The translations under genes were made by a program, and so were the position numbers. Positions 1 to 15,755 of a DNA stretch of 16,166 nucleotides are shown one piece after another. The stretch comes from a virus (Duplodnaviria; Heunggongvirae; Uroviricota; Caudoviricetes). How positions within the stretch are numbered: position 1 is the stretch's first letter; every line of letters begins with the position of its first letter. Location of the stretch: IMG/VR virus record IMGVR_UViG_2734482786_000005, positions 1 to 16,166 of that record; one strand, given 5' to 3'. Below the pieces are notes generated by a model. That model worked only from the letters and a program-made list of their open reading frames with translations, did no database searches and was not told the DNA's origin.

Positions 1-1254
1 ATGCTGGAACAAATGGGCATTGCCGCGAAGCAAGCCTCGTATAAATTAGCGCAACTCTCCAGCCGCGAAAAAAATCGCGTGCTGGAAAAAATCGCCGGTG
101 AACTGGAAGCACAAAGCGAAATCATCCTCAACGCTAACGCCCAGGATGTTGCTGACGCGCGAGCCAATGGCCTTAGCGAAGCGATGCTTGACCGTCTGGC
201 ACTGACGCCCGCACGGCTGAAAGGCATTGCCGACGATGTACGTCAGGTGTGCAACCTCGCCGATCCGGTGGGGCAGGTAATCGATGGCGGCGTACTGGAC
301 AGCGGCCTGCGTCTTGAGCGTCGTCGCGTACCGCTGGGGGTTATTGGCGTGATTTATGAAGCGCGCCCGAACGTGACGGTTGATGTCGCTTCGCTGTGCC
401 TGAAAACCGGTAATGCGGTGATCCTGCGCGGTGGCAAAGAAACGTGTCGCACTAACGCTGCAACGGTGGCGGTGATTCAGGACGCCCTGAAATCCTGCGG
501 CTTACCGGCGGGTGCCGTGCAGGCGATTGATAATCCTGACCGTGCGCTGGTCAGTGAAATGCTGCGTATGGATAAATACATCGACATGCTGATCCCGCGT
601 GGTGGCGCTGGTTTGCATAAACTGTGCCGCGAACAGTCGACGATCCCGGTGATCACAGGTGGTATAGGCGTATGCCATATTTATGTTGATGAAAGTGTAG
701 AGATTGCTGAAGCATTAAAAGTGATCGTCAACGCGAAAACTCAGCGTCCGAGCACATGTAATACGGTAGAAACGTTGCTGGTGAATAAAAACATCGCCGA
801 TAGCTTCCTGCCCGCATTAAGCAAACAAATGGAGGAAAGCGGCGTGGCATTACACGCAGATGCAGCTGCGCTGGCGCAGTTGCAGACAGGCCCCGCGAAG
901 GTGGTGGCTGTTAAAGCGGAAGAGTATGACGATGAGTTTCTGTCATTAGATTTGAACGTCAAAATCGTCAGTGATCTTGACGATGCCATCGCCCATATTC
1001 GTGAACACGGCACACAACACTCCGATGCGATCCTGACCCGCGATATGCGCAACGCCCAGCGTTTTGTTAACGAAGTGGATTCGTCCGCTGTTTACGTTAA
1101 CGCCTCTACGCGTTTTACCGACGGCGGCCAGTTTGGACTGGGTGCGGAAGTGGCGGTAAGCACACAAAAACTCCACGCGCGTGGCCCAATGGGGCTGGAA
1201 GCACTGACCACTTACAAGTGGATCGGCATTGGTGATTACACCATTCGTGCGTAA
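1..1254 (+). CDS. proA: gamma-glutamyl phosphate reductase (glutamate-5-semialdehyde dehydrogenase)
   Basis: 417-aa ORF starting at ATG at position 1, stop at 1252-1254. Translation matches enterobacterial ProA as I recall it (aldehyde dehydrogenase fold). Roughly 50% G+C, typical core-genome composition. Confidence 0.93.
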
Positions 1255-1368
1255 ATAAAACCGGGTGATGCAAAAGTAGCCATTTGATTCACAAGGCCAT
1301 TGACGCATCGCCCGGTTAGTTTTAACCTTGTCCACCGTGATTCACGTTCGTGAACATGTCCTTTCAGG

Positions 1369-1444
1369 GCCGATATAGCTCAGTTGGTAGAGCAGCGCAT
1401 TCGTAATGCGAAGGTCGTAGGTTCGACTCCTATTATCGGCACCA
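1369..1444 (+). tRNA. thrW: tRNA-Thr, anticodon CGT (thrW-type)
   Basis: 76-nt sequence GCCGATATAGCTCAGTTGGTAGAGCAGCGCATTCGTAATGCG...GGTTCGACTCCTATTATCGGCACCA with the usual D-loop and T-loop motifs (GGTTCGA), a CGT anticodon in the loop, and a 3' CCA. Lies directly downstream of proA, as at the enterobacterial thrW locus. Confidence 0.93.
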
Positions 1445-1446
1445 TT
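1428..1446 (+). repeat. attL core (3' end of tRNA-Thr)
   Basis: TCCTATTATCGGCACCATT at the tRNA 3' end is repeated as TCCTATTATC-GCACCATT at 15615-15632. Confidence 0.75.
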
Positions 1447-1461
1447 CTAACGTTTCCCCAA

Positions 1462-1546
1462 GTCTACTAAAGTTCACTGAAACCCCTTATACTCTGCGCT
1501 TTACAGCCCCTTTTAGTATTTCTACGTCTACTAAAGTTCCCTGAAA
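1462..1546 (+). repeat. Two 21-bp direct repeats between tRNA and int (putative arm-type recombinase or accessory-factor sites)
   Basis: GTCTACTAAAGTTCACTGAAA at 1462-1482 and GTCTACTAAAGTTCCCTGAAA at 1526-1546, one mismatch, 64 bp apart. Confidence 0.5.
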
Positions 1547-1557
1547 TCTACGGTCGT

Positions 1558-1609
1558 TTGGGGGTACTTATGGGGGTATTTGTTGTTCGGTCTATAGGAG
1601 GTACCCCCA
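1558..1609. promoter_or_regulatory. TGGGGGTA-type motif cluster upstream of int (putative integrase arm sites or int promoter control)
   Basis: TGGGGGTAC at 1559-1567, TGGGGGTAT at 1571-1579, and inverted GTACCCCCA at 1601-1609. The same tandem pair, TGGGGGTACTTTTGGGGGTAT, recurs at 15532-15555 near attR. Confidence 0.45.
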
Positions 1610-1610
1610 A

Positions 1611-2825
1611 GTGAAACTAAACGCCCGCCAGGTGGACACCGTCAAACCTAAAGATAAGCCTTACAAGCTGGCTGATGGTGGTGGTTTGTATCTCTTGATT
1701 AAACCTAATGGCGGCAAATACTGGCGGCTCAAGTATCGTGTAGCAGGCAAAGAGAAGCTGTTAGCGCTTGGCGTGTATCCTGAAGTCACATTGGCCGATG
1801 CTCGGGCAAAACGTGAAGAAGCCAAAAGGGGGATCGCTGGGGGTATCGATCCTATGGAAGCGAAACGGGAAGAAAAGATTGCCCGTGAAACTCAGTTAAA
1901 CAATACATTCAAAGATATTGCCCTTGAGTGGCACAGCAGCAAACTAAAAAAATGGTCTGCTGGGTATGCTTCAGACATCCTGGAGGCTTTCAACAAAGAT
2001 GTGTTCCCTTACATTGGCAAAAAACCAATAGCTGATATCAAACCGCTTGAACTGTTGAATGTGCTACGGCGCATTGAGGGGCGCGGCGCTACAGAAAAGG
2101 CCAAAAAGGTTAGGCAGCGCTGCGGGGAAGTTTTCCGTTACGCAATAGTCACCGGCCGTGCTGAGTATAACCCTGCTCCGGATCTCACCAGTGCGATGCA
2201 AGGGCATGACTCCAATCATTATCCTTTCCTCACACCAAAGGAATTGCCTGATTTCTTCAAGGCTTTGTCAGGATATACAGGAAGCGCGTTAGTAGTTTTA
2301 GCCGCTCGTCTGCTGATTATAACCGGCTTGCGTACCGGCGAACTCCGCGGGGCATTTTGGGATGAAATCAATATCAATAAGGCGGTCTGGGAAATACCAG
2401 CCTCACGCATGAAAATGCGTCGCCCTCATATAGTGCCATTGTCTGAGCAGGCTCTTTCGCTTATTGGGCAGATTAAAGAACTAACTGGCAATTATCCGCT
2501 TATGTTTCCTGGTCGTAATGATCCAAGAAAAACAATGAGTGAGGCCAGCATAAACCAAGTATTTAAGCGCATTGGTTATAACGGAAAGGTTACTGGCCAC
2601 GGTTTCCGACACACTATGAGCACCATTTTGCATGAGCAGGGCTATAACACTGCGTGGATAGAAACGCAGCTCGCGCACGTCGATAAAAACTCAATTCGTG
2701 GCACATACAACCATGCGCAATATCTGGATGGGCGGCGGGAAATGCTTCAGTGGTACGCTGATTATATGGATTCGCTCGAGCATGGCGGAAATGTGGTGCA
2801 TTGTGAGTTCGGAAAATGCGGGTGA
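1611..2825 (+). CDS. int: tyrosine site-specific integrase (P4-like, tRNA-targeting)
   Basis: 404-aa ORF with GTG start and AGGAGG 9 nt upstream. N-terminal arm-binding type region (KLADGGGLYLLIKPNGGKYWRLKYR) and C-terminal catalytic motifs (LRTGELRG, HGFRHT, a Tyr near the C-terminus). Sits immediately 3' of the tRNA. Confidence 0.9.
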   Translation: MKLNARQVDTVKPKDKPYKLADGGGLYLLIKPNGGKYWRLKYRVAGKEKLLALGVYPEVTLADARAKREEAKRGIAGGIDPMEAKREEKIARETQLNNTFKDIALEWHSSKLKKWSAGYASDILEAFNKDVFPYIGKKPIADIKPLELLNVLRRIEGRGATEKAKKVRQRCGEVFRYAIVTGRAEYNPAPDLTSAMQGHDSNHYPFLTPKELPDFFKALSGYTGSALVVLAARLLIITGLRTGELRGAFWDEININKAVWEIPASRMKMRRPHIVPLSEQALSLIGQIKELTGNYPLMFPGRNDPRKTMSEASINQVFKRIGYNGKVTGHGFRHTMSTILHEQGYNTAWIETQLAHVDKNSIRGTYNHAQYLDGRREMLQWYADYMDSLEHGGNVVHCEFGKCG

Positions 2826-2952
2826 CTGGTTGAGTATACAGTAGTAGACTTTGAGCGATTAAGAAAAGGCTGTGTCTAGGGTCGCTCCCGAAAATCCGTA
2901 CACCTCGGCGGACTGGCACAGCCACTACGGTAGAGGGCGCAGAGGTGTGCGT

Positions 2953-3723
2953 ATGGTTGATATTCATGCCGAATTAAATGAATACAAAAAAGAGTTTATT
3001 TATTTACGTGATTTTCTTGATGATGTATTTAAAGTTGTTGATGCTAATATTTCAGAAGTCATTACCTGGATACTCAAGAGAATAAATACAGTAAATCCAG
3101 GCATTACCCTGTACACAGTAAATTCATTAAATGAGGTGGAGCTTTATTCTTCGGATCCGTTTGAGTGGAGATCTGATTTTAACTTTCTTTATGCAAAACT
3201 GGATACGGTTAGGGAGCGTGGTTGTTTACCTTGTGAGAGGGATGAGAGTGGTTTTCTGGTATCTGGTTATTGGGAAGATGCCGAATTTGAGGCAATGGGA
3301 TTCAGAAGAAATGAAATTTTCGAAATTTTCCCAGAAATCCTTGACGGGTTAATGAATCTGGAATGTGCTGACTCTTCTGAAAATAACGAGGCGCAAGGAA
3401 GCAATATTGAACATAAAGAGTTGCGTACAGATGATGATTTTTTATCCCGAATTGCAATGCTGGAAAAAGAAAATGAATCGTTAAGGGCGCGGGTAAATCA
3501 GTTAGAAAAGGAGCGCCCGATTTTGCTAAAGGCGTATCGTGATGATGACCCATTGTATCTGGCTATCGATATTAGAAACAGAGAGTGGGCCAATTACGAC
3601 CCAGAGAATGATCGCGCAACTAGGGGAAACCAGGGCGCGATTACTACTGAGCTTGAAAAACGAGGTTTTACCTCCCGACAGGCCGCATCTATTGAGCTTG
3701 TCGCCTGTCCTATCAAACGATGA
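2953..3723 (+). CDS. hypothetical protein (AT-rich accessory gene between int and alpA; predicted coiled-coil segment)
   Basis: ORF track gives 2872-3723. I prefer ATG at 2953 (MVDIHAELNEY...) because GAGGTG lies about 7 nt upstream. Sampled lines are clearly AT-rich. Contains an LEKENESLRARVNQLEKE heptad-like stretch. No family recognised. Confidence 0.55.
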   Translation: MVDIHAELNEYKKEFIYLRDFLDDVFKVVDANISEVITWILKRINTVNPGITLYTVNSLNEVELYSSDPFEWRSDFNFLYAKLDTVRERGCLPCERDESGFLVSGYWEDAEFEAMGFRRNEIFEIFPEILDGLMNLECADSSENNEAQGSNIEHKELRTDDDFLSRIAMLEKENESLRARVNQLEKERPILLKAYRDDDPLYLAIDIRNREWANYDPENDRATRGNQGAITTELEKRGFTSRQAASIELVACPIKR

Positions 3724-3763
3724 AGCCTTACCCTAGTGGTATCTCATGTTTTGTTCGCGTCTC

Positions 3764-3840
3764 ACCCTAAGGGTAATCAGACCTCACCCTTAGGGTATTT
3801 TTGTATGCTTTCCCATCAATTTTACTATTACCCTTAGGGT
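3764..3840. promoter_or_regulatory. Three copies of palindromic ACCCTWAGGGT upstream of alpA (putative operator array)
   Basis: ACCCTAAGGGT at 3764-3774, ACCCTTAGGGT at 3786-3796 and 3830-3840, centre-to-centre spacing 22 and 44 bp. A degenerate half-site (TACCCTAGTGGTA) lies at 3729-3741. Confidence 0.5.
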
Positions 3841-3943
3841 AAAAATATTCCCGATTACCATTAGACCTGAGAGCATTAAAATATTCGTTATTTCTGTGCC
3901 ATGATTACCTCGTCAAATTGAGTAGACGTTATGAGGTAAATAT

Positions 3944-4141
3944 ATGTCAAATACGCTTATTCGTTTAACGGAAGTTCAGCGTAGAACTGGATATAGCAAG
4001 GCATGGATTTATCGCCTTATGGGGCAAGGTAAATTTCCTGCATCAGTTAAAATTGGCTCGCGAGCGATTGCTTTCGTTGAGAGTGAAATTGACGAGTGGA
4101 TTAATCAGCGTATTGCGGAATCACGCGGAACAGCTACCTGA
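3944..4141 (+). CDS. alpA: AlpA-family phage/island transcriptional regulator (excision activator type)
   Basis: 65-aa ORF with GAGGTAAAT RBS. The sequence ...RLTEVQRRTGYSKAWIYRLMGQGKFP...VESEIDEWINQR matches the AlpA-family HTH pattern as I recall it (CP4-57 AlpA-like). Confidence 0.85.
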   Translation: MSNTLIRLTEVQRRTGYSKAWIYRLMGQGKFPASVKIGSRAIAFVESEIDEWINQRIAESRGTAT

Positions 4142-4219
4142 TTAAATGGCTACGGGGCCAGAAGTCCCAGCTATCCACCAGCAAATAAAAAGTAACTTAA
4201 TTCGATAGCAGGAGTTTTT

Positions 4220-5020
4220 ATGAAACTGCGAAAAACGCCCGTACAGGGGCAGGGCTTCGTTCGGCCTGAAAACCAGAGCCAACAAAATTTCTGCGAAATT
4301 ATCCCAGTTAGTTCCGGCGTTATTGGCGGGCGTGAAACCAATATTGTTAGCGCCAGAGCGTTGCATAAGGTGCTGGGTGTGAAGCGTGATTTCACAACTT
4401 GGATTAAAGGACGCATTGATGAGTACGGATTTAAAAAGGGCGTGGATTTTGAATTCGTAGAAAATTTGACCTCCCCCAATCCGGTGAGCGCAAAATCTCG
4501 CCAACGTGTAGAGCACGACTACCTGAGCACTATCAACATGGCGAAAGAACTGGCGATGGTCGAGCGCACCGAACAGGGGCGCGCCGTTCGTCAGTACTTT
4601 ATCAAATGCGAGGAGGAGCTACACAAGGTAGCGCCAGTGCGGTCCGCAGTGTTACGCCGGGAACTGAAAGCCCGTATCACAGTTGCCAGCTACTTTAAGC
4701 CAATGTGTGCCGCGCTGGAGGCGTACCGGGCTGAGCTGGGTAAAAACACTCTACAGCACCACTACACCACGGAAGCCAATATGCTGGCGCGTATCGTGCT
4801 GGGTGGCATGACTGCAAAACAGTGGGCGCAGGCGAACGGCATCACAGGCGAACCACGCGACCACATGAGCACGTTGCAGCTTGAGCATCTTTCTTACCTT
4901 GAGCAGAGCAATATCACGCTGATTGAGTTAGGCCAGGACTACCACCAGCGGAAAGCTGAATTAATTCGTCTTTCGCAGCGTTGGTTAGCCCGTCGCATGG
5001 AGGAAAACAGCCATGTGTAA
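4220..5020 (+). CDS. phage-associated protein, tentatively AntA/AntB-type (antirepressor-like) N-terminal domain
   Basis: 266-aa ORF with AGGAG 6-7 nt upstream of the ATG. The stretch SARALHKVLGVKRDFTTWIKGRIDEYGFKKGVDFEF resembles the AntA-type signature as I remember it. The assignment is tentative. Confidence 0.5.
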   Translation: MKLRKTPVQGQGFVRPENQSQQNFCEIIPVSSGVIGGRETNIVSARALHKVLGVKRDFTTWIKGRIDEYGFKKGVDFEFVENLTSPNPVSAKSRQRVEHDYLSTINMAKELAMVERTEQGRAVRQYFIKCEEELHKVAPVRSAVLRRELKARITVASYFKPMCAALEAYRAELGKNTLQHHYTTEANMLARIVLGGMTAKQWAQANGITGEPRDHMSTLQLEHLSYLEQSNITLIELGQDYHQRKAELIRLSQRWLARRMEENSHV

Positions 5021-5479
5021 CGCTCTGACCGTTACAAAAAGAAAAAGCGCCCCGTTGCCGGAGCGCCTTTGTGAACAAGTCGCTTACTGCGCCATATTGC
5101 TTACTGTCTACGAGGCAGATTATAGCGTTGTGGTCGTACAGAGTGAAGGCGCTGATCACTGTTATCACAGTAAGCCAGAAATGCAGAATATTTCGCTGCA
5201 AAATGCCGTTGGCCAAGCTGTCTGGAAAGCAAAAAATACTGCTGGTGGCGCGACTGATGCAATTTTTTCTGGTTGCCAGGTGCTGATCAATCTGATGTCT
5301 GATTTCGTTCTGGATAAAACAAAGGCGACCGCAGAGGGCCGCCAGTGGGAAAGCTACATACTTGAACGCACCACCAACAATGCCACATTTGCGGCTGGTG
5401 GGCAATGTGTCAGCTTTGCACCAATGACTCTAGATTTAACTGAGGGGCATTATGGTGAATATGCTGGCTTGCTGGTGGG

Positions 5480-5680
5480 CTATTCCTGCTCTTTAACATC
5501 GCCATGCCGCGATGTTTTCCAGGTATGTGGCCCTAATTTTGTGCGCCTGTACTCTTTCAGGAACGTCTCAAGGACAAACGCACACGGCGCGAATCTGTCT
5601 GATTCATGCTCGCGCGTCATATTTTTGCGACGTCTCTTCCGGGTTGGTGATGGTATTTTTGTTAACTTTTTATTGTTCAT
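5480..5680 (-). CDS. small basic hypothetical protein (66 aa)
   Basis: Minus-strand ORF. I prefer the internal ATG at 5678-5680 (MNNKKLTKIPSPTRKRRRKN...) because GGAGG lies 7 nt upstream. Lys/Arg-rich N-terminus. Lies downstream of, and co-oriented with, the RHH gene. Confidence 0.35.
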   Translation of the reverse strand: MNNKKLTKIPSPTRKRRRKNMTREHESDRFAPCAFVLETFLKEYRRTKLGPHTWKTSRHGDVKEQE

Positions 5681-5737
5681 AATGGCCTCCTGCATAGCAA
5701 TGCGCCGTAGTTCCTCACACCACGGCACTGATAGTTT

Positions 5738-5917
5738 TTATCCTTTAGATTCTATGCCGCGTTGCTGTAATTCTTTGCGGATTATTCGCTTTATCCAGGC
5801 TGCAAGAGAATCATCGCCGTCCTGTTGTTGTGCTTTTTCCATCTTTTCCCGTAAGTCAGGATCTAAACGGAACTGGAACGGAGGATTACCACGCCTTTCG
5901 CTTTTGTGTGCTGACAC
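5738..5917 (-). CDS. putative ribbon-helix-helix (Arc/MetJ-like) DNA-binding protein, 59 aa
   Basis: Not in the ORF track (under 60 aa, GTG start). My manual reverse-complement translation is VSAHKSERRGNPPFQFRLDPDLREKMEKAQQQDGDDSLAAWIKRIIRKELQQRGIESKG. GAGGTG lies 8 nt upstream of the GTG. The beta-strand then two helices pattern is typical of RHH repressors. It is divergent from the replication operon. Confidence 0.5.
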   Translation of the reverse strand: MSAHKSERRGNPPFQFRLDPDLREKMEKAQQQDGDDSLAAWIKRIIRKELQQRGIESKG

Positions 5918-5944
5918 GTCAATTACACCTCATGTAATGTATTT

Positions 5945-5960
5945 ATGTGTAATTACACAT
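5945..5960. promoter_or_regulatory. Perfect 16-bp palindrome ATGTGTAATTACACAT in the divergent intergenic region (putative operator)
   Basis: Self-complementary 16-mer flanked by further TGTAAT/ATTACA half-sites (5921-5970). Lies between the minus-strand RHH gene and the plus-strand operon starting at 6056. Confidence 0.55.
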
Positions 5961-6055
5961 TACACACAATCAGAGCAAAAAGTAAAGCCCTGCAAGTGTC
6001 GGTACCACTGGCAGGGCCTCTAACCACCAACGATAGCAATATTATCGAGGTAGCT

Positions 6056-6592
6056 ATGAGAAATTATACCCCACACCCGCAAGGGCGGGACTCGCACAAC
6101 CTGAATAAACCCGATGTAAAAAACCTGTTGCTCGCCACTGCCAGCCAGGGCTATGATTTATACGCACCAGCAAAATCTGGTGCCGGGATTGGCGTCCTGG
6201 TATTTAACGAAGCGCACAACACGCGCCCTGCGTGTTTTTTTGTGCCGGATAGTCACACCTTATCAATGGTGGGCTGTATGGGGGCGGAGCAATCCGCGCC
6301 GGGTTCTTCGTTAACCGGTTACGCCAACCCCGTACAGTCCACCGCCAGCGAAATTGGCGTTTCCTGCGGTGGGTTTATTAACCCTAACGAAGAGGCTGCC
6401 AATATGGCTACAGTCCCTACCCTTGTACATTCTCACACTGTCTTTATCTGGCGCTTTATCATCTTTGGCGCGTCAGAATCCCAAATCATCCACGTCACCG
6501 CCTGGACGGAACGCGAAGCGCGTAACCATTGCCCGTCCTGTTGTGTCGCTGTATTCGCCGCCCGTATTCGTCAGGAGGTGCGCCATGATTAA
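6056..6592 (+). CDS. hypothetical protein (first gene of replication-module operon)
   Basis: ORF track gives 5945-6592. I prefer ATG at 6056 (MRNYTPHPQG...) because GAGGT lies about 5 nt upstream and the longer version would overlap the operator region. No family recognised. Confidence 0.5.
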   Translation: MRNYTPHPQGRDSHNLNKPDVKNLLLATASQGYDLYAPAKSGAGIGVLVFNEAHNTRPACFFVPDSHTLSMVGCMGAEQSAPGSSLTGYANPVQSTASEIGVSCGGFINPNEEAANMATVPTLVHSHTVFIWRFIIFGASESQIIHVTAWTEREARNHCPSCCVAVFAARIRQEVRHD

Positions 6593-6878
6593 TCTGTCAA
6601 TCTCTGACCTTAACCGCATTCAGTATGACGAGAAATTTACCGGGAGCGTAAAAGCATTGAGGAAGCAGGCTGGATGTGCACGACTTATTAAGCCGTTAAG
6701 GTGTCATCATGATGATGATCCGCACTTTACCGGACGTATGGTGAATCACTACAAAAAAGGCGTTGAGGTATCCTCTGAACAGCTACGAGCTGGTTGCTGT
6801 TTCGGCACACCACCGGAATTTAGCGAACTGCTGACCCGTTGCGATTACCGGATCATTCAGGGGGAAAGTCATGGGTAA
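6585..6878 (+). CDS. hypothetical protein (97 aa)
   Basis: Internal ATG of track ORF 6354-6878, with AGGAGG 6 nt upstream. The start overlaps the stop of the preceding gene, suggesting translational coupling. MINLSISDLNRIQYDEK... Confidence 0.5.
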   Translation: MINLSISDLNRIQYDEKFTGSVKALRKQAGCARLIKPLRCHHDDDPHFTGRMVNHYKKGVEVSSEQLRAGCCFGTPPEFSELLTRCDYRIIQGESHG

Positions 6879-7071
6879 TCAGCCAGCAACAATGACAATT
6901 ACCCTGAATGTGCCAGATGATTTCACCGGGCGCGTACTGGTTTACCTGGATAAAGGGAAAGTGAAATCACAATGCCGACTGCGAAATAATGAAATAGTAA
7001 GTACGGTAGAAGGCTTTTCTGAACTCTGTATTCGTGCAGGAATAAAACCGGAACTGCTGACAGGAAAATAA
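6871..7071 (+). CDS. hypothetical small protein (66 aa)
   Basis: ORF with a GGGGGAAAG purine-rich RBS. Overlaps the previous stop by 8 nt. Sits in the operon with the primase-like gene. Confidence 0.45.
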   Translation: MGNQPATMTITLNVPDDFTGRVLVYLDKGKVKSQCRLRNNEIVSTVEGFSELCIRAGIKPELLTGK

Positions 7072-7075
7072 AACC

Positions 7076-7366
7076 ATGAAAAAGAAAAATTCTGGCTTTA
7101 CTGCCAGCGGCCTCTCTCGGTCTGCAATTCGCTCTGGCGATATTTACCGCGACACCAGACGTGGGGGACGAGTGGTTATTCGTCACGTTACGCCAGGAAA
7201 TATCACCTACCGCCGTGAGGCTTACGAATATGACTGCGTAATGCCGCGCCGTCAGTTTGAGCGTGATTTTATTCTGGTGGAAAACAAAGAACAGGCAGTA
7301 GCGAGACGTGCAGCCTCGAGTATTAAAAAAATCCGGGCAATGTTGGTAGCTGGGGGTAAGAAGTGA
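7076..7366 (+). CDS. hypothetical protein (96 aa)
   Basis: ORF immediately upstream of the replication protein, with its stop overlapping that gene's GTG start. Basic protein. No family recognised. Confidence 0.5.
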   Translation: MKKKNSGFTASGLSRSAIRSGDIYRDTRRGGRVVIRHVTPGNITYRREAYEYDCVMPRRQFERDFILVENKEQAVARRAASSIKKIRAMLVAGGKK

Positions 7367-9495: not shown

Positions 9496-9527
9496 CACAA
9501 CCTACGCTCGCAGAGGGTCAAAAATCG

Positions 9528-9801
9528 CGGGATATGCGGGATATCGGGATATGAAAAATATATTGCAGAAATATCAGTTATTTATGTGTTGTTGTCGTAT
9601 CCCGCTGTATCCCGCCGTATCCCGGTATTTAGGTTTACGAGTGGTTGTAAAACAAACAAAATAACCGTATCCCGGAATGTATCCCGCAATATCTTATTGA
9701 TGCATAAGCAAAAAAAAACTTACCGGGATATGGCGGGATATGAAAAATCACATAACACCATGAAATAAATAAGTTTTTTTGTTCATATCCCGATATCCCG
9801 G
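9528..9801. repeat. Iteron array (putative origin of replication): about 12 copies of CGGGATAT / ATATCCCG in both orientations, with A/T tracts
   Basis: Direct tandem CGGGATAT(G/C) at 9528-9553; GTATCCCG(C/G) three times at 9598-9624 on a roughly 10-bp period; further copies at 9668-9687, 9724-9742 and 9785-9801. Poly-A and poly-T runs at 9710-9718, 9774-9780 and 9805-9826. Track ORFs 9473-9664 and 9586-9768 lie on these repeats and are not believed. Confidence 0.65.
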
Positions 9802-9952
9802 TAAAAAATGTTTTTTTACGCCTTATAGAGTACAGAAAAAAGATTGTTCAAATTTTGTATTACGATTGACTACTGTCAGCCATCCCACCCGGAAAAGGCA
9901 TAAAAGCTGACAGGTAACTGACAATGAGACAGTTTTATTTTTACGTGCCGAT

Positions 9953-10510
9953 ATGACGGCAACAATAATGGGGCAGAGCATGACAAAACTGACCATTAAC
10001 AGAAAACCGAAAGGTATTTACGGCACGCCGCAGAAAACGACGCAGGCGGCACAGAAGCAGGATAAAACCACATCGGCACATAAAGTGATGCCCGGTAACC
10101 AGAAAGCGCAGCAGAAGCCCACAGGGGCGACACCGTGGCGGCATATGACCAAACGCCAGCGCAAAAACCGCAGGCGCGTTAACCGCCTCACTGAGTTGTG
10201 GCCTGACTTATTCTGCAGGGAAGCACCGAAGCCACTTAAGGTGGGGATATTCAATGACCTGGTGCAGGATATCGCCGTCAGGGAGCTGGCATTCGGTCCA
10301 GGGGCATTACGTGCGTCACTGGCATCTTATGCGCAGTCACCGCGCTATTACCGAGCCCTGGTTGCTGGTGGGGTGCGCTATGACCTGAAAGGCCAGCCGT
10401 GCGGCGAGGTGACACCACAGAAACAGAACGAGGCAGAAATGCGGCTGATGGCGCTGAATGAGAAGCGCAAACGTCAGCGCCGGGCAGCAAAGGAGAAAAC
10501 AGGCGCATGA
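9953..10510 (+). CDS. ProQ/FinO-domain RNA-binding protein
   Basis: 185-aa ORF. The segment LWPDLFCREAPKPLKVGIFNDLVQDIA...LRASLASYAQSPRYYRALVAGGVRYDLKGQPCGEV parallels the ProQ N-terminal FinO-like domain as I recall it (PLKIGIF..DLV...R.DL.G.PCGE). The start is uncertain among ATGs at 9953, 9968 and 9980. Confidence 0.7.
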   Translation: MTATIMGQSMTKLTINRKPKGIYGTPQKTTQAAQKQDKTTSAHKVMPGNQKAQQKPTGATPWRHMTKRQRKNRRRVNRLTELWPDLFCREAPKPLKVGIFNDLVQDIAVRELAFGPGALRASLASYAQSPRYYRALVAGGVRYDLKGQPCGEVTPQKQNEAEMRLMALNEKRKRQRRAAKEKTGA

Positions 10511-10794
10511 TTCACGACAGCAAAGCGGAAGCACTGGAAGCGCGTGGTCTGTACCGGAGAGCGGCGGAAAGATGGGCAGAAGTCATAATGCGAGTGGATG
10601 GTGATAAGGCTCGGGAGGAGGCGGCAAAACGTCGCGCGGAATGTATCCGCAAGGCAGCCCGCCCACCAGCAAAGCTGGATAATTTCGAAGAGATGCGCGA
10701 AACCATCAGCCAGGCACATGCTGGTATGGGATTACATCAGCCCAATGGTAAGGCATTCAGGAAATACCCCGGGGCAAAAAATTACAATCCATGA
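10507..10794 (+). CDS. PerC-family transcriptional regulator-like protein
   Basis: 95-aa ORF whose start overlaps the previous stop (ATGA). The N-terminus MIHDSKAEALEARGLYRRAAERWAEV matches my recollection of PerC/Pch-family proteins. Confidence 0.65.
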   Translation: MIHDSKAEALEARGLYRRAAERWAEVIMRVDGDKAREEAAKRRAECIRKAARPPAKLDNFEEMRETISQAHAGMGLHQPNGKAFRKYPGAKNYNP

Positions 10795-10798
10795 GAGA

Positions 10799-10826
10799 GG
10801 CCGGGATTTTACCCGGCTTTTTTGTG
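10799..10826 (+). terminator. Rho-independent terminator-like hairpin after the PerC-like gene
   Basis: GGCCGGGATTTTACCCGGC stem-loop followed by TTTTTTG, immediately 3' of the stop at 10794. Confidence 0.6.
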
Positions 10827-10995
10827 TCAGCAAAAAAGCCCACAGACAGCAGTGTTGCGGGGGGGGGTTTCAGGTGGTTGAAGTCATTGGGAAGAACGTG
10901 AACATTACGCGCAAATGTTTCACAAATTGCAATAAAATGGATTGTTATTTCAGTTTATGCAATCATGAGCATTGCTTTGATCAGGAGAGATGATT

Positions 10996-11163
10996 ATGAG
11001 AAAAGCCAGCGTAAAACCCGTTTTACTCGCTCGTGAGCAGATTGAAGCATTACAGCGCATCCAGGACGAAGAGCGTCAAAAATCTGTGCTTGGTGTGGCC
11101 CCGTCGATTCATGTTATTGCCAGGCAACTGATGGACAAGGCACTTAAAGAGGTGAAACTGTGA
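10996..11163 (+). CDS. small hypothetical protein (55 aa)
   Basis: Not in the ORF track (under 60 aa). AGGAG at 10984-10988, 7 nt before ATG 10996. My translation is MRKASVKPVLLAREQIEALQRIQDEERQKSVLGVAPSIHVIARQLMDKALKEVKL. The stop overlaps the GTG start of the next ORF. Confidence 0.45.
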   Translation: MRKASVKPVLLAREQIEALQRIQDEERQKSVLGVAPSIHVIARQLMDKALKEVKL

Positions 11164-11432
11164 AATTAAATATCAGAGTGGATAAACGCCAGCTATGGCA
11201 GAAAAAAGAGAACAGTGAGGCATTCAGGGATTTGCTGGTGGAAAATCTTCAGCACCGTTTCAGTGGAGAGCTGCCAGACGCGCTGGGGAAAAAACTGGAA
11301 TCTCTGACGGTGGAAATTGGCGATTATGGTTTTGTTGATGTTGAAAGCACGACTGCCAACACAGAAATCGTAAAACAGGTCGTCAACGATGTAATGAAAA
11401 CCACGCTTAGCCAGCCATCCTGGCGTAACTGA
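11160..11432 (+). CDS. hypothetical protein (90 aa)
   Basis: GTG start overlapping the previous stop (GTGA), suggesting coupling. Acidic protein. No family recognised. Confidence 0.45.
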   Translation: MKLNIRVDKRQLWQKKENSEAFRDLLVENLQHRFSGELPDALGKKLESLTVEIGDYGFVDVESTTANTEIVKQVVNDVMKTTLSQPSWRN

Positions 11433-11531
11433 ATCCGCAAGGGGCGGTGATTGCCCCTCTCCGCCATACCCACAACGAATTCCTTTTTCGCATGAAGTGA
11501 ATGTTTATCGTATATGCATGAGGTGAGCCAC

Positions 11532-12056
11532 ATGTTGATGAGTAAAGCCGAATACGCCAAATACAAAGGTGTAAGCCGCCAGACAGTTTACGACTGGATC
11601 GAGAAAGGCGAGGTGGTCATGTCGGGTAAAAAAATTGATATGGAGGCTACAGAGTGGCGAAACAGCCCATCATCACAGGGAAAAGACACTGTTTCTGAAA
11701 TGTGGCCTGAGAGAACGCTGGAAATGACGTGGGGCGAGTTCTGGAAAGCTGTCAGGGACAGAGACGGTAAAATTCCTGCGCCAGTAACGGACGATGACAT
11801 AAAGCAGCGTGTGCAGGATGCAGCCGGGGAATTAGGCTGGGAAGCACACTTTCTTGATGATGGTGCTATCTGCCTTGAGGATGATGAAGGACAGCATTAC
11901 TTTGAACAATACAATTTGCGGGGTAATGCCAGGCTGGCAATTCGTATGCTGCGCTGTGAACTCTGCTATGTTGCAGGTGATTATCCTGATGAACTTGAAT
12001 CATGGAGCGAGGCAGGACTAAACGCCCTGGCTGAATGGGAGAAAACAGGTCATTAA
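11532..12056 (+). CDS. putative packaging-redirection protein with terminase small-subunit-like N-terminal HTH (Rpp-like), tentative
   Basis: Track ORF 11514-12056. I prefer ATG at 11532 because GAGGTG lies 6 nt upstream. N-terminal SKAEYAKYKGVSRQTVYDWIEKGEVV resembles the lambda Nu1 N-terminal DNA-binding segment as I recall it (KKQLADIFGASIRTIQNWQEQGMPV). About 175 aa, acidic C-terminus. Followed by a repeat array. Confidence 0.45.
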   Translation: MLMSKAEYAKYKGVSRQTVYDWIEKGEVVMSGKKIDMEATEWRNSPSSQGKDTVSEMWPERTLEMTWGEFWKAVRDRDGKIPAPVTDDDIKQRVQDAAGELGWEAHFLDDGAICLEDDEGQHYFEQYNLRGNARLAIRMLRCELCYVAGDYPDELESWSEAGLNALAEWEKTGH

Positions 12057-12063
12057 CGGCCGC

Positions 12064-12390
12064 AAAAAGTGTCAAGTTGAGCAGCTTGCAAGGTTGACAC
12101 TTTACACTCTGAACACGAAAAAGTGTCAACCTCGCTGTAAGCCCCGCCATTACTGGTCTTGCGCCATGTTTGCCACATCAAAAGGCCGAAAAAATCGCGA
12201 AAAGTGTCAAGTTGCCATGCTTAGAAATGCTAAGTTTTGTTAAGGTTTTTCGCGGAAAAGTGTCAACTCAACCTAACGGATCTTAACGCTCACGCACAAC
12301 AGCTGCAGCCAACGTGTAAAGGACTGATGCGAAGCAGGGCAGCTGTCAGCCTGTTATGGTTTGTTATGCCTTACCTGGGGAAAGTGTCAA
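12064..12390. repeat. Array of six AAAGTGTCAA motifs (five direct, one inverted), candidate packaging (cos/pac-type) or protein-binding site
   Basis: Copies at 12066-12075, 12120-12129, 12201-12210, 12257-12266 and 12381-12390 on the plus strand, and an inverted copy TTGACACTTT at 12094-12103. Most are preceded by CGCGAAA or CGCGGAA. A partial copy lies at 12437-12452. Confidence 0.6.
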
Positions 12391-12451
12391 CCGCTACCGT
12401 TTCAGAAAGCTTCAATTGCAGAGCGTTGGCAGCACCTGTCAAAACTTGTCA

Positions 12452-12480
12452 CCCGCCGGCACAGCCAGCGGGAATTTTTT
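12452..12480 (+). terminator. terminator-like GC hairpin plus T-run
   Basis: CCCGC...GCGGG stem followed by AATTTTTT at 12473-12480. Lies between the plus-strand backbone genes and the convergent minus-strand cargo operon. Confidence 0.4.
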
Positions 12481-12599
12481 GCTCTAAACGCTCTAAGTTA
12501 CAGTTGATGTGATCTGTAAACTGCGGTTGCAACTAGTAATCGTATAAAACCATCAGTTGCAGTTTTACCTAACTATAGTCACAATGATAGTTTATATAA

Positions 12600-14099
12600 T
12601 TATACATTGTATGCGAGGTAATCATATAATGCTAAAAGTTTCCGATAATCAGTATGAGATTTGTCCTTAAACTCCCGGACATGTTTTTCTAAATCTTCTA
12701 AGGGTATATGTTCATCATGAGCATTGAAGAAAATAATATTTTGTAATTTGCTATAACTATCAGAATGTTTAGCGTAAATATCTTCAATGGTATGTTCTAC
12801 TATTCTTTGATTCTTGGGTAACCTGGAATAGTTTAGATTTATTAATCTTTTTTGATTTTTCATTAATGATGTTAAGCATTTAACACCTGGGCTGAATTTA
12901 TGAAAAGCATAAGCTGGGAAATATGATCTTTTATTGATGGTGAACTTGTCAAGCAACTCGACAACATGTGATTCCTTATTTGAAATTAGATCAAAATAGT
13001 TTTCCATCATCTCCTGAGGTGTTTGCATGTATATTTTTATAGAGTTAACAGAACCGACGGCTAGAACAAGCTCATCATTTCTGAGTGTCTCCAAATCCCC
13101 AACAAGTTTTACTTTTATGTCTCCACCTTCCTTTATTTTACCAAAGATACTCTCTACTCTGCGTATATCCATTACCGAAACTGGTAAGTGGAGTTGAGCA
13201 AGTTCTTTATATATATCTGAGAAGTTATCTGTAACGATTTTATTAATGCTAATTAACCCTGCATCTTCTACTTCGAGATCGTGAGAGACAATGTTTAAAT
13301 TATCAATACCTTCTTCTCTTTCAATAAGAAGGAAGTTGTTTTTTATTTTTTCTGCAATTTTAGAACGAGGTGGTATGTATGAGAATATTGTTTTTAATAC
13401 TTTTTTTATATTCGGATCACCTATTCTATATCCCATAAATATAATCGGATTATGTATAAACAAGGATAGGAGTTGAGCACGAATTAATTCATATTTTTTA
13501 TCAAAATGAATATAGTCATCACTGGTTATTATTATGGATTCTGGTTTGCTAACGCATCCGTGAATTTTATAAACAGAACCATAAGGATTGCTTAAAAGTA
13601 TATCATTTCCAATAACAGGATTATAACCAATTGCACTTTCGATAAAATTATCATAGTTTGTCGTAATCACAGAGGCAATGTTTTTTGAGGCCTTTACTAA
13701 TTCAGATATTTCATCTTGAACTCCTAATTTTAAATCTGTGATATTAACCACCTGTGAAAGATAGATTTTAAATCTGCTGATATTTGAGGATATATCTTCT
13801 GACTCGTAGTATAAGTCATTGATATATTTGAACTTTCCGTTCCTGTCTGCTTTTAGTGTTGCATCAAAAATTTGCTCTAATTGCGTTGCTACTTTTGGAA
13901 GGTCTACAATACCATCTTTATTGCTGTTTTCTCTGACAAGATCTTTATAGAGTTCATTAGAATTTGTCAGGTCAATACTAATTTTCTCTAAGAGTGCCGG
14001 CCAGCTATAAGAAATTGATAAGTATCTCATGCTGAAACCTGCTCCAACAAATAATATTGGGTGGTTTCTGTAGCCTTTTAGAAAATCCGTTATATTCAT
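12600..14099 (-). CDS. SIR2-like domain protein (putative NAD+-consuming defence effector) with uncharacterised roughly 200-aa C-terminal region
   Basis: 499-aa minus-strand ORF with GGAGG 5 nt upstream of the ATG at 14097-14099. Motifs checked codon by codon: ILFVGAGFS (aa 15-23, DNA about 14031-14057), TTNYD (aa 146-150, DNA 13650-13664), KIHG with His180 (DNA 13557-13565). AT-rich: sampled lines are about 27-35% G+C. Confidence 0.75.
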   Translation of the reverse strand: MNITDFLKGYRNHPILFVGAGFSMRYLSISYSWPALLEKISIDLTNSNELYKDLVRENSNKDGIVDLPKVATQLEQIFDATLKADRNGKFKYINDLYYESEDISSNISRFKIYLSQVVNITDLKLGVQDEISELVKASKNIASVITTNYDNFIESAIGYNPVIGNDILLSNPYGSVYKIHGCVSKPESIIITSDDYIHFDKKYELIRAQLLSLFIHNPIIFMGYRIGDPNIKKVLKTIFSYIPPRSKIAEKIKNNFLLIEREEGIDNLNIVSHDLEVEDAGLISINKIVTDNFSDIYKELAQLHLPVSVMDIRRVESIFGKIKEGGDIKVKLVGDLETLRNDELVLAVGSVNSIKIYMQTPQEMMENYFDLISNKESHVVELLDKFTINKRSYFPAYAFHKFSPGVKCLTSLMKNQKRLINLNYSRLPKNQRIVEHTIEDIYAKHSDSYSKLQNIIFFNAHDEHIPLEDLEKHVREFKDKSHTDYRKLLALYDYLAYNV

Positions 14100-14190
14100 T
14101 TGACCTCCGAGATATATTAGCGGTAATCATTAAAATTTGTAAGAACACAGCTCAAGTATGTATTTAGCTGTAGAGATAAGAATTTACTTG

Positions 14191-15318
14191 TTATTGACCA
14201 TTTGGATAGTAAATTTTCATAAGCCTCTCTTTTTCTTTGTTGAATTCTTTATCAAAATCAATTTTTTTGTCTAAATTAGAATGTAAGTCATTTAACGCTT
14301 TAACAAGAACCCAAGCGCTGTGGTGGATGAATGGGTTTAATCCAATAATGTTTCCTGCAGAATTATCGTCAACTTTCTCAACTGCTAAAATCGCTTGGAT
14401 TTTTTTACAGCTTTCCTGAATATTCCAATCTGAAACATGTAGTAATAATGCAGATAAAGCCATGAGTGGGTTGTTTGCTTTAATAGATGTAGGGGTGTAA
14501 CTAATAATCATACGGAGTCGAGGGTGGTAGTCTCGAATCAGTCTCGCCATTCGAGTAGCTATCTCATATTTTTCGTTGAGAATTGATCTGTCAAATGTTG
14601 ACGTCCCAGAGTCTTTAATTAATATAGTTCTTGCTTTTTTGACTACTGATTTAAGTCTTACATTCCAAAGCTCAGGATTCTCATGACGGTCTAGATAGAA
14701 TTGAGGATGCTTGAAATAAAGAGATTGATATACTTCCTCGTTGATATCGAACCAACTTTTGTTTATGGCGCTGAGATCGACAACATAATTATCATTGTTT
14801 CTCTTATATCTAATCAATGAGGCCTTTGCAAGGTAGATTATGTGAGGGCTTAAATTAAATGTAAAAGTGCCTTTTTCTCTTAAATCTAAGAACCATTGGC
14901 GCATGTTACGTATATCTTCTTGCGTAAAAATCTTCTCCTGAATTCCCGCACAGACCATAAGACCTATTAAGCGTGTCGCTTCAGAACCCGAGCGCATAAA
15001 ATCAATTTGGCCTTCATTTGAAACAACGTTCAACTTATCATCGCCAGTATAAAAATCACAAAATGGGAGGTGAGAGTCTTTACCTAGATTGTCTCGAAAT
15101 GCAAAGTGTGCTTGCTTTACAACTTTGCCGTTACTGAGAGATCTTCCTTCCGAAACGTAATAACCACCAGAAACATTGCATGCCGGGCATTCAACATCCT
15201 CTTTAACAAAATCTCTAAAACTTAGAGAAGGATCTGAGTTGCTACGTTCGAAAAGGTTTTCCAACTGCTTAGCATCCAGCTCACGCTTAAATTTTCTAGA
15301 ATAGGCCGTTATCGTCAT
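14191..15318 (-). CDS. hypothetical protein, partner of the SIR2-like gene (376 aa from the preferred start)
   Basis: Track ORF 14191-15384. I prefer ATG at 15316-15318 (MTITAYSRKF...) because AAGGAG lies 6 nt upstream. Co-oriented with the SIR2-like gene and 91 bp upstream of it. AT-rich. Contains CPACN ... LPFCDF cysteines. I see no Walker A and no TIR-like signature. Confidence 0.65.
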   Translation of the reverse strand: MTITAYSRKFKRELDAKQLENLFERSNSDPSLSFRDFVKEDVECPACNVSGGYYVSEGRSLSNGKVVKQAHFAFRDNLGKDSHLPFCDFYTGDDKLNVVSNEGQIDFMRSGSEATRLIGLMVCAGIQEKIFTQEDIRNMRQWFLDLREKGTFTFNLSPHIIYLAKASLIRYKRNNDNYVVDLSAINKSWFDINEEVYQSLYFKHPQFYLDRHENPELWNVRLKSVVKKARTILIKDSGTSTFDRSILNEKYEIATRMARLIRDYHPRLRMIISYTPTSIKANNPLMALSALLLHVSDWNIQESCKKIQAILAVEKVDDNSAGNIIGLNPFIHHSAWVLVKALNDLHSNLDKKIDFDKEFNKEKERLMKIYYPNGQ

Positions 15319-15531
15319 TTCGGTCTCCTTTCGAAGGGAGCTTAACTTTATCATAGGATGATCATAAAGGGAGCTGTACGGCAAACATCACTAAGGTTGG
15401 GCCTGAAACACAAATTCCCTAAGTGCAATTTTGACGTCTAACTTACTTGATGTGCTTCAAGGCGGTTCTTACATTGTGGTATCAACAACAATAGAATGTT
15501 TTTTAAACAATTTAGATAGCAACAAGCAAGT

Positions 15532-15555
15532 CTGGGGGTACTTTTGGGGGTATCT
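15532..15555. promoter_or_regulatory. TGGGGGTAC-TTT-TGGGGGTAT motif pair near attR (matches the motif pair near int)
   Basis: CTGGGGGTACTTTTGGGGGTATCT at 15532-15555 matches TGGGGGTACTTATGGGGGTAT at 1559-1579. Confidence 0.45.
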
Positions 15556-15614
15556 AATGATTGCGTAATAGTTTTTTTATATACATATCAATGTGTTGAT
15601 TTCTACAATTTGTT

Positions 15615-15632
15615 CCTATTATCGCACCATTT
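15615..15632 (+). repeat. attR core (degenerate copy of the tRNA-Thr 3' end)
   Basis: CCTATTATC-GCACCATT against tRNA CCTATTATCGGCACCATT. Identical apart from a missing G. Confidence 0.7.
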
Positions 15633-15755
15633 AAATCAAGTAGTTACCCCATATTTAAATACACCACGTTTCCTCCTGTGCCGTATTTGTGCCATTGTAA
15701 CCCTGGCAATTCATCAAAATACTGTTCTGACATCAGGCAATGCAGGTGCAGACAT

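Follow-up and report, generated by a model that had tools for sequence, protein, structure and literature searches.

What kind of element is inserted at the threonine tRNA gene thrW in the DNA catalogued as IMG/VR virus record IMGVR_UViG_2734482786_000005, and how would it move between cells? The stretch analysed here (the window) covers positions 1 to 16,166 of that record, 16,166 nucleotides in all. It is Escherichia coli chromosome, part of it being matched in 5,414 of 5,426 complete genomes, and it carries an island that an initial annotation, made from the sequence alone, had read as a satellite of about 14.2 kb, either P4-like or resembling a phage-inducible chromosomal island (PICI). 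We show below that the segment 1447-15631 is a discrete insertion and, very probably, a Gram-negative PICI-type phage satellite of the thrW/EcCIMP1-integrase clade, built on the backbone of the island found in E. coli 55989.

The left flank of the window is proA (1-1254), followed by the integration target thrW, which encodes tRNA-Thr(CGT) on the plus strand (1369-1444; found by ARAGORN, 71.8 bits with the Rfam tRNA model). At the right edge of the window lies a LysR-type substrate-binding fragment, annotated in reference genomes as an N-terminally truncated pseudogene beside paoD. The sequence between these flanks is foreign relative to many E. coli genomes. Two plus-strand copies of the tRNA 3' end bracket it: the attL core TCCTATTATCGGCACCATT (1428-1446), which is the intact end and comprises the last 17 bases of thrW and 2 more, and the attR core TCCTATTATCGCACCATT (15614-15631; TCCTATTATCG-CACCATT), a tRNA fragment equal to the attL core minus one G. 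The 11-mer TCCTATTATCG occurs at these two sites only within the window, against a chance expectation of 0.23 at up to one mismatch. The duplication had originally been placed at 15615-15632; it is real, but the coordinates were one base off and one G is missing. An empty site was then built in silico by joining window 901-1446 to 15632-16166 and searched for in the 5,426 complete E. coli genomes, a comparison that the initial annotation had proposed. The joined flanks aligned without interruption at 80% coverage or more in 948 genomes, and in 5 of these the identity was 100% over all 1,081 bases; the annotation under the empty-site match reads proA, tRNA-Thr, LysR fragment, paoD. Thus, the insert measures 14,185 bp (1447-15631, in the register chosen) and sits as a discrete unit within the 3' end of tRNA-Thr(CGT), which bears out both the size and the site first suggested.

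The right boundary is marked independently by a tandem insertion. In BCE049, whose island is 99.5% identical, the match to the window stops at 15647 and is followed by a prophage integrase; this prophage (21614-22758 of the stretch compared) has its own 372-aa (amino acid) integrase and sits in tandem at the attR of the island. The attR tRNA fragment of BCE049 has a longer deletion (TCCTATTATC joined directly to CATTT), which starts at the same point as the single-G deletion, a 1-bp loss after TCCTATTATCG common to the window and to the 55989 and MP1 islands. Mageeney et al. found deletions in attR tRNA fragments, tRNA-Thr included, only in the PICIs of their data set and in none of the prophages. 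This "damage" signature, reported as PICI-specific, is present in the window, 55989, MP1 and BCE049. The single-G form of attR may come entirely from attP, the crossover lying further right, which was our first reading, or it may be integration-associated damage of the kind that the literature describes as typical of PICIs.

The integration functions are arranged around this site. A 404-aa tyrosine integrase (1611-2825, plus strand) has P4-type arm-binding, central and catalytic domains (Pfam PF13356, PF22022 and PF00589). On its left, in the P' arm, lies a doubled motif GGGGGTACTTATGGGGGTA (1560-1578, plus strand) with an inverted GGGGGTA at 1602-1608, and at the far end of the island, in the P arm, a second doubled motif GGGGGTACTTTTGGGGGTA (15534-15552, plus strand), 80 bp upstream of the attR core. 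Both have the form GGGGGTAC-N4-GGGGGTA, of which no match is expected by chance; the P' copy is 132 bp to the right of the start of the attL core. The same layout flanks the thrW islands of 55989, BCE049, MP1 and strain 27992. Int carries an Arm-DNA-bind_3 domain (Pfam), and the motifs are analogous to a doubled motif at -81 bp described for helper-embedded PICIs (Mageeney et al.); we infer that they are arm-type integrase-binding sites. The P' arm also contains two 21-nt direct repeats, GTCTACTAAAGTTC(A/C)CTGAAA (1462-1482 and 1526-1546, plus strand; 95% identity in a repeat search), which may be regulatory or accessory-protein sites bracketing int. A 77% inverted copy of this repeat is located at 2830-2851, just past the int stop codon. 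Downstream of int are the int-alpA RNA motif RF02996 (2869-2936, plus strand; 45.8 bits against a gathering score of 35.8), which occurs in the 55989 island too, and a gene for an AlpA-family regulator/excisionase (3944-4141, plus strand; PF05930, E = 2.4e-19), 81% identical to the AlpA of EcCIMP1.

Several lines of evidence place the island among the Gram-negative PICIs. The features by which such elements have been recognised in the literature include an integrase at one end with att sites, AlpA downstream of int and a replicase with an iteron origin, and all of these are found here; the length of 14,185 bp falls within the published range of about 12-15 kb. Gram-negative PICIs are laid out in four zones (integration, Bro/immunity, replication and late), and the gene order of the island follows this layout. 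No capsid, tail, portal, terminase or lysis family was detected in any open reading frame (ORF) in profile searches with Pfam, PHROGs and PADLOC, and a megablast search of 50,697 phage records with the whole insert was negative. None of the backbone ORFs is truncated when compared with those of related islands. The order of modules read in the initial annotation (int, AlpA, ribbon-helix-helix gene, replicase with iterons, helix-turn-helix gene with repeat array, cargo, attR) is real; the label "primase" is not supported. Of the two affinities that it had left side by side, the PICI-like one is favoured by the absence of structural and lysis genes and of phage nucleotide matches, together with kinship to two islands.

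The first of these is EcCIMP1, the PICI of E. coli MP1, whose helper is phage Kapi1 (ISME J 2025, PMC11773190). EcCIMP1 circularises only when Kapi1 is present, is specifically transduced, and requires its own int and alpA (PMC11773190). It occupies the same site, tRNA-Thr between proA and yagU (the pao/yagU side), between the same TCCTATTATC repeats, and shares with the window AntA, an isrK and C4 RNA module, an Icd-like ORF, DUF4222, a DUF927 replicase, PerC, the doubled GGGGGTA arms and the single-G attR. Protein identities are 94% for Int, 81% for AlpA, 60% for AntA, 42% for the DUF927 protein and 44% for PerC. EcCIMP1 differs in being larger (19.96 kb), its late zone containing a second alpA along with DUF2824, transglycosylase and P22-like ejection genes; in its TOPRIM+DUF927 replicase, which comes without TATCCCG iterons; and in lacking the winged-helix gene hth180, the AAAGTGTCAA array and the SIR2 cargo described below. 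The second is the thrW island of E. coli 55989 / O104:H4 (296286-311648, 15.3 kb), which Fillol-Salom et al. 2018 tabulate as a "PICI" in their supplement. Its backbone is collinear with the window up to 12266, with Int 95%, replicase 98%, ProQ 95% and hth180 89% identical, and it has the same iterons, AAAGTGTCAA array, att sites and arm motifs. It differs in its cargo (an AAA ATPase and a DUF4435 gene, not SIR2 and a 375-aa protein), in extra genes after PerC, and in the replacement of its immunity region (window 5730-6550).

How would such an island be packaged? The last backbone gene encodes a satellite-specific winged-helix protein of 174 aa, here called hth180 (11532-12056, plus strand), a candidate DNA-recognition protein for the array that adjoins it. 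This array (12066-12390) begins directly after the hth180 stop codon and contains six exact AAAGTGTCAA sites, five direct and one inverted, which are the only six exact matches in the window (1.49 expected); TGCTAAG/TGTTAAGG doubled motifs accompany them. The hth180 family is restricted to Enterobacterales, and its members are all annotated as hypothetical or just as DNA-binding. An array follows the hth180 homologue in Pantoea, Klebsiella, Serratia and Enterobacter, where the protein is 37-59% identical, and the gene and array also occur as a pair in E. coli islands with different replicases and at other chromosomal sites. Because the pair is conserved across genera and the recognition-helix residues S15, R16, Q17, V19, Y20 and W22 are invariant in the family, we regard binding of hth180 to the adjacent array as likely. 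A second doubled heptamer (ATGCTTAGAAATGCTAAG / TGTTAAGG) lies beside the AAAGTGTCAA sites at 12212-12250 and 12352-12372, and it differs by genus, Serratia having ATGGTAAC-N3-ATGGTAAC, spaced 87 bp apart (9754-9949 of the Serratia stretch; 9778-9802 in Enterobacter). It could be the binding site of another protein that sets specificity.

The gene, listed together with its repeat array, had been labelled packaging-related. Gene and array are real, but hth180 is neither Rpp nor a recognisable TerS (small terminase). Its N-terminal fold is a small winged helix of the MerR/TerS-N-terminal type, and its alpha/beta C-terminal domain gave no match in a structure search. No phage homologue was found by tblastn in the 50,697 phage records, and no full-length structural match among viral proteins (BFVD); sequence, fold, phage and viral-structure searches all leave it unrecognisable as TerS. 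Cos PICIs of the EcCICFT073 type, which use Rpp (Fillol-Salom 2018, 2019), share the order int, alpA, replication and late genes, a PerC homologue and AlpA as presumed activator; towards the end of their backbone, too, a small winged-helix protein with the MerR/TerS-N-terminal fold is encoded. The window, however, has no lambda-type cosQ/cosN; its winged-helix protein has no RppC sequence match in PDB and agrees with it in the generic winged-helix domain only; the C-terminal domain is alpha/beta, where that of Rpp is a coiled-coil; and the adjacent site is a multi-copy array as opposed to a single R3-like element. Packaging in the manner of EcCICFT073 was rejected on the absence of lambda cosN at up to two mismatches, which also leaves the cos-type helper that had been proposed without support. 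Our best guess is that hth180 and its array would mark the island DNA for packaging.

Relatives in other genera carry the pair in varied surroundings. In Klebsiella pneumoniae (5501-9516) and Serratia (5816-9519), the hth180 gene comes after captured baseplate-type genes (Dit_like, Pam3_gp18, E217_GP41 and Apex spike); E217-like myovirus tail genes lie around the K. pneumoniae relative, which has the appearance of a helper-embedded satellite. An Enterobacter cloacae element (2566-9585) beside proA, the position that thrW has in E. coli, ends in a distant, 37% identical hth180 homologue and a AAAGTGTCAA array; PDDEXK_GAPS4 is among its genes, and the stretch shown has no called integrase.

The array also marks where the backbone ends. 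In at least 127 genomes, homology to the backbone extends as far as 12266, where the fifth array repeat ends, and does not return before the att region. The variable cargo region (12267-15530) has a GC content of 29-40%, against about 43-57% in the backbone, and its genes span 12600-15318, at the end opposite the integrase and followed by attR, as had been noted. In other islands this slot is occupied by an AAA ATPase with DUF4435, by DUF3800, by DUF4747, or by a type I restriction-modification system with AbiE. The low-GC cargo is, on this comparison of sequences, an exchangeable block in a hotspot. P4-like satellites have comparable defence hotspots (Rousset et al. 2022), and PICIs too carry immune systems, with diverse anti-phage systems exchanged in a fixed slot beside att. 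The present slot differs in belonging to another satellite family, in being bounded by the AAAGTGTCAA array and the P arm of att, and in its occupants, the candidate system PDC-S25 and an unclassified 375-aa gene.

The first occupant is a 499-aa protein with a SIR2 domain (SIR2_2), encoded on the minus strand (12600-14099) and matching the PADLOC candidate PDC-S25 over residues 2-498 (PDLC04968, E = 1.9e-139; PF13289). It has the SIR2 motifs TTNYD (residue 146) and KIHG (residue 178), and the domain aligns with the SIR2 domains of DSR2, ThsA and KomC in PDB. Outside Enterobacterales, the closest relatives come from Peptoniphilus and Myroides, both low in GC; in the latter, the gene adjoins an Abi_2 gene and a type ISP-like methyltransferase. 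The second occupant, also on the minus strand (14191-15318), is the 375-aa protein, with conserved CxxC...H...C and GN..G.NPF motifs; its predicted model is confident and has no significant structural neighbour in PDB. The 375-aa gene also occurs without SIR2: Shewanella, Acinetobacter and Pseudomonas have it in variable regions, and conjugative plasmids carry it beside NACHT and AAA_15 genes. Since it occurs alone in other genera, it is not an obligate partner of SIR2, and the Peptoniphilus and Myroides SIR2 relatives are without it; we therefore rejected an obligate two-gene system as a general rule. Within E. coli PICIs, the two genes travel together as a 3.2-kb block, on two backbones: in 15 genomes, a 94.4%-identical block fills this same slot in another PICI backbone, a Klebsiella-like one that is also at thrW. 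Remnants of this cargo were also seen in MP1, where they flank the vat/MarR "unclassified island" beside EcCIMP1. They consist of a SIR2 3' end fused to an N-terminal integrase pseudogene, a fragment of the 375-aa gene and attR (window 12571-12715, 15024-15124 and 15545-15647, corresponding to 10073-10217, 3593-3693 and 3488-3587 of the MP1 stretch). About 540 E. coli genomes, Nissle 1917 among them, contain the 145-bp SIR2 remnant, and it appears that a decayed SIR2-cargo PICI encloses the vat island at thrW.

A bolder reading takes in both hth180 and the cargo. It holds that hth180 and the AAAGTGT(C/A)AA array form an undescribed packaging-specificity module of enterobacterial satellites, distinct from TerS and Rpp and independent of helper type because it is found with P22-like, with myovirus-baseplate or with no captured late genes; that the same module is the recombination boundary of the defence hotspot; and that the 375-aa protein, with its Zn motif, is a new single-gene anti-phage or anti-defence factor. 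Taken as a whole, we put this forward as a tentative proposal that is considerably more likely to fail than to hold.

The immunity region of the island resembles known systems of RNA-based control. In phages P1 (immI; c4-icd-ant) and P4 (cI/seqA), processing of an operon's leader yields the antisense RNA that controls this operon; the RNA has two complementary targets, one of them over the icd ribosome-binding site, and the sequence of its loop sets the specificity, giving rise to heteroimmune variants. In the window, an isrK/seqA-like leader RNA (6164-6240, plus strand; Rfam RF01394, 80 bits against a gathering score of 50) is followed by a C4/CI-type antisense immunity RNA (6262-6349, plus strand; RF01695, 76.4 bits against 45). 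A terminator scan found an intrinsic terminator with its T run in the leader (6218-6236), and the Rfam model for the a1/b1 target (6151-6203) scored 39.8 bits, under its gathering score of 46.7. Within the C4 hairpin, the 11-nt loop UUCUUCGUUAA (6304-6314) shows complementarity with two targets, one upstream within the isrK element (TTAACGAAG, 6204-6212) and one downstream (TAACGAAGAG, 6385-6394, plus strand; 10 pairs, 9 of them Watson-Crick). The downstream target overlaps the Shine-Dalgarno sequence of an icd-like small protein (6404-6592, plus strand; NF033153, E = 8e-16), taking in its GAGG and ending 10 nt before the ATG at 6404.

The loop and its targets covary, with three different loops in three islands. 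In the RM9088 island, both targets are changed to match a different C4 loop, and their offsets (-58..-50 and about +122..+134) equal those of the window. In EcCIMP1, the loop differs again and pairs with GUACAAGGAGG over the icd-like Shine-Dalgarno sequence, as read from the printed sequence, this pairing not being listed by the scan filter; the complementarity scan returned no upstream target there. The covariation thus extends to both sites in RM9088 and to the downstream site in EcCIMP1. A longer "Ash"/eta-like ORF (5945-6592; PF10554, phrog_29966) is in frame with the icd-like ORF and overlies the isrK and C4 genes; in BCE049, PGAP annotates it as an ash family pseudogene. The Ash protein-family signal may partly reflect conservation of the RNA, as with P4 eta/cI. 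Matches to the C4 and isrK profiles in Gram-negative PICIs have already been reported in the literature. The RNA logic is that of P1 and P4, with variants that look heteroimmune. There are also differences: a satellite replication module stands downstream of icd where P1 has ant, a divergent gene with a candidate operator is added, and regulation in the window is predicted from sequence.

That divergent gene, on the minus strand (5738-5917), encodes a 59-aa Arc/YlcI-YnfO-like ribbon-helix-helix protein; the match is weak (phrog_228, E = 2e-6; NF041551, E = 5e-4, below cutoff). The candidate operator, a 14-bp perfect palindrome TGTGTAATTACACA (5946-5959) with flanking ATTACAC repeats (two copies by TRF), was read from the sequence and lies between this ORF and the leader. 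A repressor with its operator had been proposed here and the unit is plausible, but the isrK/C4 antisense RNA module, which the initial annotation did not see, is the strongly supported regulator and, judged by its profile matches and pairing, the main immunity element. A sigma-70 promoter scan gave no enrichment over shuffled sequences and no match for the leader promoter, and for this reason we claim no promoter positions. Downstream of the ribbon-helix-helix gene, a 66-aa minus-strand ORF (5480-5680) is conserved and annotated in 55989 and not called in BCE049; it has no family match and a basic N-terminal stretch, KRRRK.

The immunity region is also where the window and 55989 part. Window 5730-6550, compared with 7232-8060 of the 55989 stretch, is non-homologous within otherwise collinear islands, and this block spans the ribbon-helix-helix gene, the operator, isrK, C4 and the start of icd. 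The 55989 island has instead a 101-aa YlcI/YnfO protein, longer than that of the window, and no C4 or isrK at the Rfam gathering score. As the non-homology is confined to this block and the RNAs are missing from 55989, the immunity cassette itself is a swappable block, and its replacement resembles heteroimmune cassette exchange.

Replication is assigned to a 710-aa DUF927 replicative helicase/initiator (7363-9495, plus strand; PF06048, E = 2e-40; NF047345). It matches PDB 8tch, "Pathogenicity island protein" (SaPI), and 5dgk, "Active helicase" (SCCmec Cch), at E about 2e-6, which supports its assignment to the SaPI Rep/SCCmec Cch family of helicases/initiators. It had been called a primase; profile searches detected no Toprim, Zn-ribbon, Prim-Pol or D5 domain, only the helicase domain being recognisable, so "helicase/initiator" is supported and "primase" is not. 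Directly 3' of the replicase, the putative origin (9527-9800, defined by motif count) contains 12 TATCCCG iterons in both orientations with AT-rich spacers, out of 14 in the whole window (1.37 expected). The iterons are kept in 55989, where the replicase is 98% identical, and are absent beside the 42%-identical replicase of EcCIMP1; this co-occurrence with replicase type is as expected if the two form a cognate Rep-ori pair. Further downstream on the plus strand are genes for a ProQ/FinO-family RNA-binding protein (9953-10510; PF04352, E = 3e-24) and a PerC-family regulator (10507-10794; PF06069, E = 2e-31).

Some observations weigh against assigning the island to the PICIs or against parts of the picture drawn here. 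Two of the five PICI core components of SatelliteFinder, those for capsid morphogenesis and the small terminase, are unrecognisable, and under its scheme the island would score "Type C", as does EcCIMP1, a class that the authors call ambiguous. Helper-dependent induction, replication and high-frequency transfer are shown only for the relative EcCIMP1; for the present island they, and a helper phage, are presumed. The original PICI criterion (Fillol-Salom 2018) is that att sites are never occupied by prophages, and thrW, common to satellites and prophages as the tandem prophage of BCE049 illustrates, departs from it; the validated EcCIMP1 uses the same site, however, so the criterion is not absolute. 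The full island is found in only 5 of the 5,426 complete E. coli genomes. PDC-S25 is a candidate and not a validated defence system. Finally, the case for a packaging role of hth180 consists of its position, its fold and the conservation of the array, and the fold fits an excisionase or a transcription factor equally well.

The alternative that best survives these points is a former satellite turned immobile or decaying genomic defence island, kept only by vertical descent and by homologous recombination at thrW and no longer living through a helper. The rarity of the island, with 5 genomes, and the lack of a recognisable terminase, capsid-remodelling gene or cos site are in keeping with it, as is the frequency at thrW of decayed remnants of the same cargo island (about 540 genomes); both cargo-bearing backbones are at thrW, so flanking homology could have moved the cargo. 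A decaying island is hard to square, however, with full-length backbone ORFs, with att cores and arm motifs that are intact on both sides, with a C4 loop and targets that are still perfectly matched, and with 99.5-100% nucleotide identity among islands from cow, human, chicken and duck isolates; moreover, a closely related Int/AlpA pair is active in EcCIMP1. We consider it unlikely.

A P4-like satellite, which would use a P2-like helper, redirect capsid size (sid/psu/delta) and be packaged at a P2-type cos, is very improbable. The P4-type integrase domains with AlpA, the CI/C4-type RNA immunity with its icd/"ash" region, and the defence slot that in the circular form lies beside the att site, as described for P4 in the literature, all recall P4, and the SatelliteFinder authors caution that int, alpA and primase alone are not enough to tell P4 from PICI. 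But Gram-negative PICIs, too, have the integrase, AlpA and CI-type RNA features, and these do not tell the two apart. Searches of all ORFs gave no match to a psu, delta or sid family, and the replicase is of the DUF927 Rep/Cch type, without the Zn-ribbon, Toprim and D5 domains. The P2/P4 cos GGCGAGGCGGGGAAAGCAC has no match at up to three mismatches, on which P4-style packaging was rejected; the P4-like half of the first description is largely refuted. We give hardly any credence to the island being what is left of a cryptic prophage, or an integrative mobilisable element that conjugation transfers, for which thrW as a prophage site and a ProQ/FinO-family protein reminiscent of conjugative-plasmid FinO might speak, given the missing phage genes and phage-record matches reported above, the absence of any relaxase or coupling-protein family in profile searches of the ORFs, and a gene order that is the four-zone PICI layout.

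The remaining genes of the PICI-type island are all on the plus strand. Between int and alpA, a 256-aa protein (2953-3723) is 64% identical in 55989, compared with 95-100% for its neighbours; it has a coiled-coil/bZIP-like segment and no match in Pfam, PADLOC, NCBIfam or PDB. Its position is, from this divergence, a second fast-evolving accessory slot. AlpA is followed by an AntA/Bro-type antirepressor-family protein (4220-5020; PF08346, E = 8e-23; phrog_5817, E = 3e-38). Three small replication-operon ORFs precede the replicase (6585-6878, 6871-7071 and, with DUF4222, 7076-7366; phrog_340, PF13973) and are annotated in BCE049. After PerC come two small conserved ORFs of 57 aa and 90 aa (10990-11432), which are kept in the 55989, BCE049 and EcCIMP1 islands and have no match in protein-family searches.

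Together, these features suggest how the satellite may live. In the resident state, the C4-like RNA would silence icd and the replication operon by translational block and by premature termination at the isrK terminator, while the small ribbon-helix-helix protein would act on its palindromic operator. A helper phage would induce alpA, as for EcCICFT073 and EcCIMP1; Int and AlpA would then excise the island at TCCTATTATC, and the helicase would fire the iteron origin. The winged-helix protein, bound to its array, would mark the island DNA for the packaging machinery of the helper. The cargo may protect the host, and hence the island, by NAD+-depleting abortive infection.

Earlier publications already describe the island family, the thrW site, defence hotspots in satellites and RNA immunity in PICIs, and the island does not overturn current understanding. 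What is new is the mosaic, which combines the 55989 backbone with PDC-S25 cargo and an RNA immunity cassette of the EcCIMP1 type, and the recognition of a conserved protein-array module at the hotspot boundary. The exact coordinates can be used for an assay of empty versus occupied sites, and the locus offers a natural setting in which to test C4-type RNA immunity in a PICI. It carries two candidate defence genes, the PDC-S25 SIR2 gene and that of the 375-aa protein, on a mobile vehicle. The hth180-array pair offers a possible explanation for the packaging of "Type C" PICIs that lack terS, Rpp and cos, which is acknowledged to be a gap in the case of EcCIMP1-like elements. The locus is thus a fully delimited example of enterobacterial satellites assembled from exchangeable blocks: an integrase with its att sites, a heteroimmune RNA cassette, a replicase and the iterons that match it, a DNA-binding module conserved at the terminus, and a defence slot of the plug-in kind.

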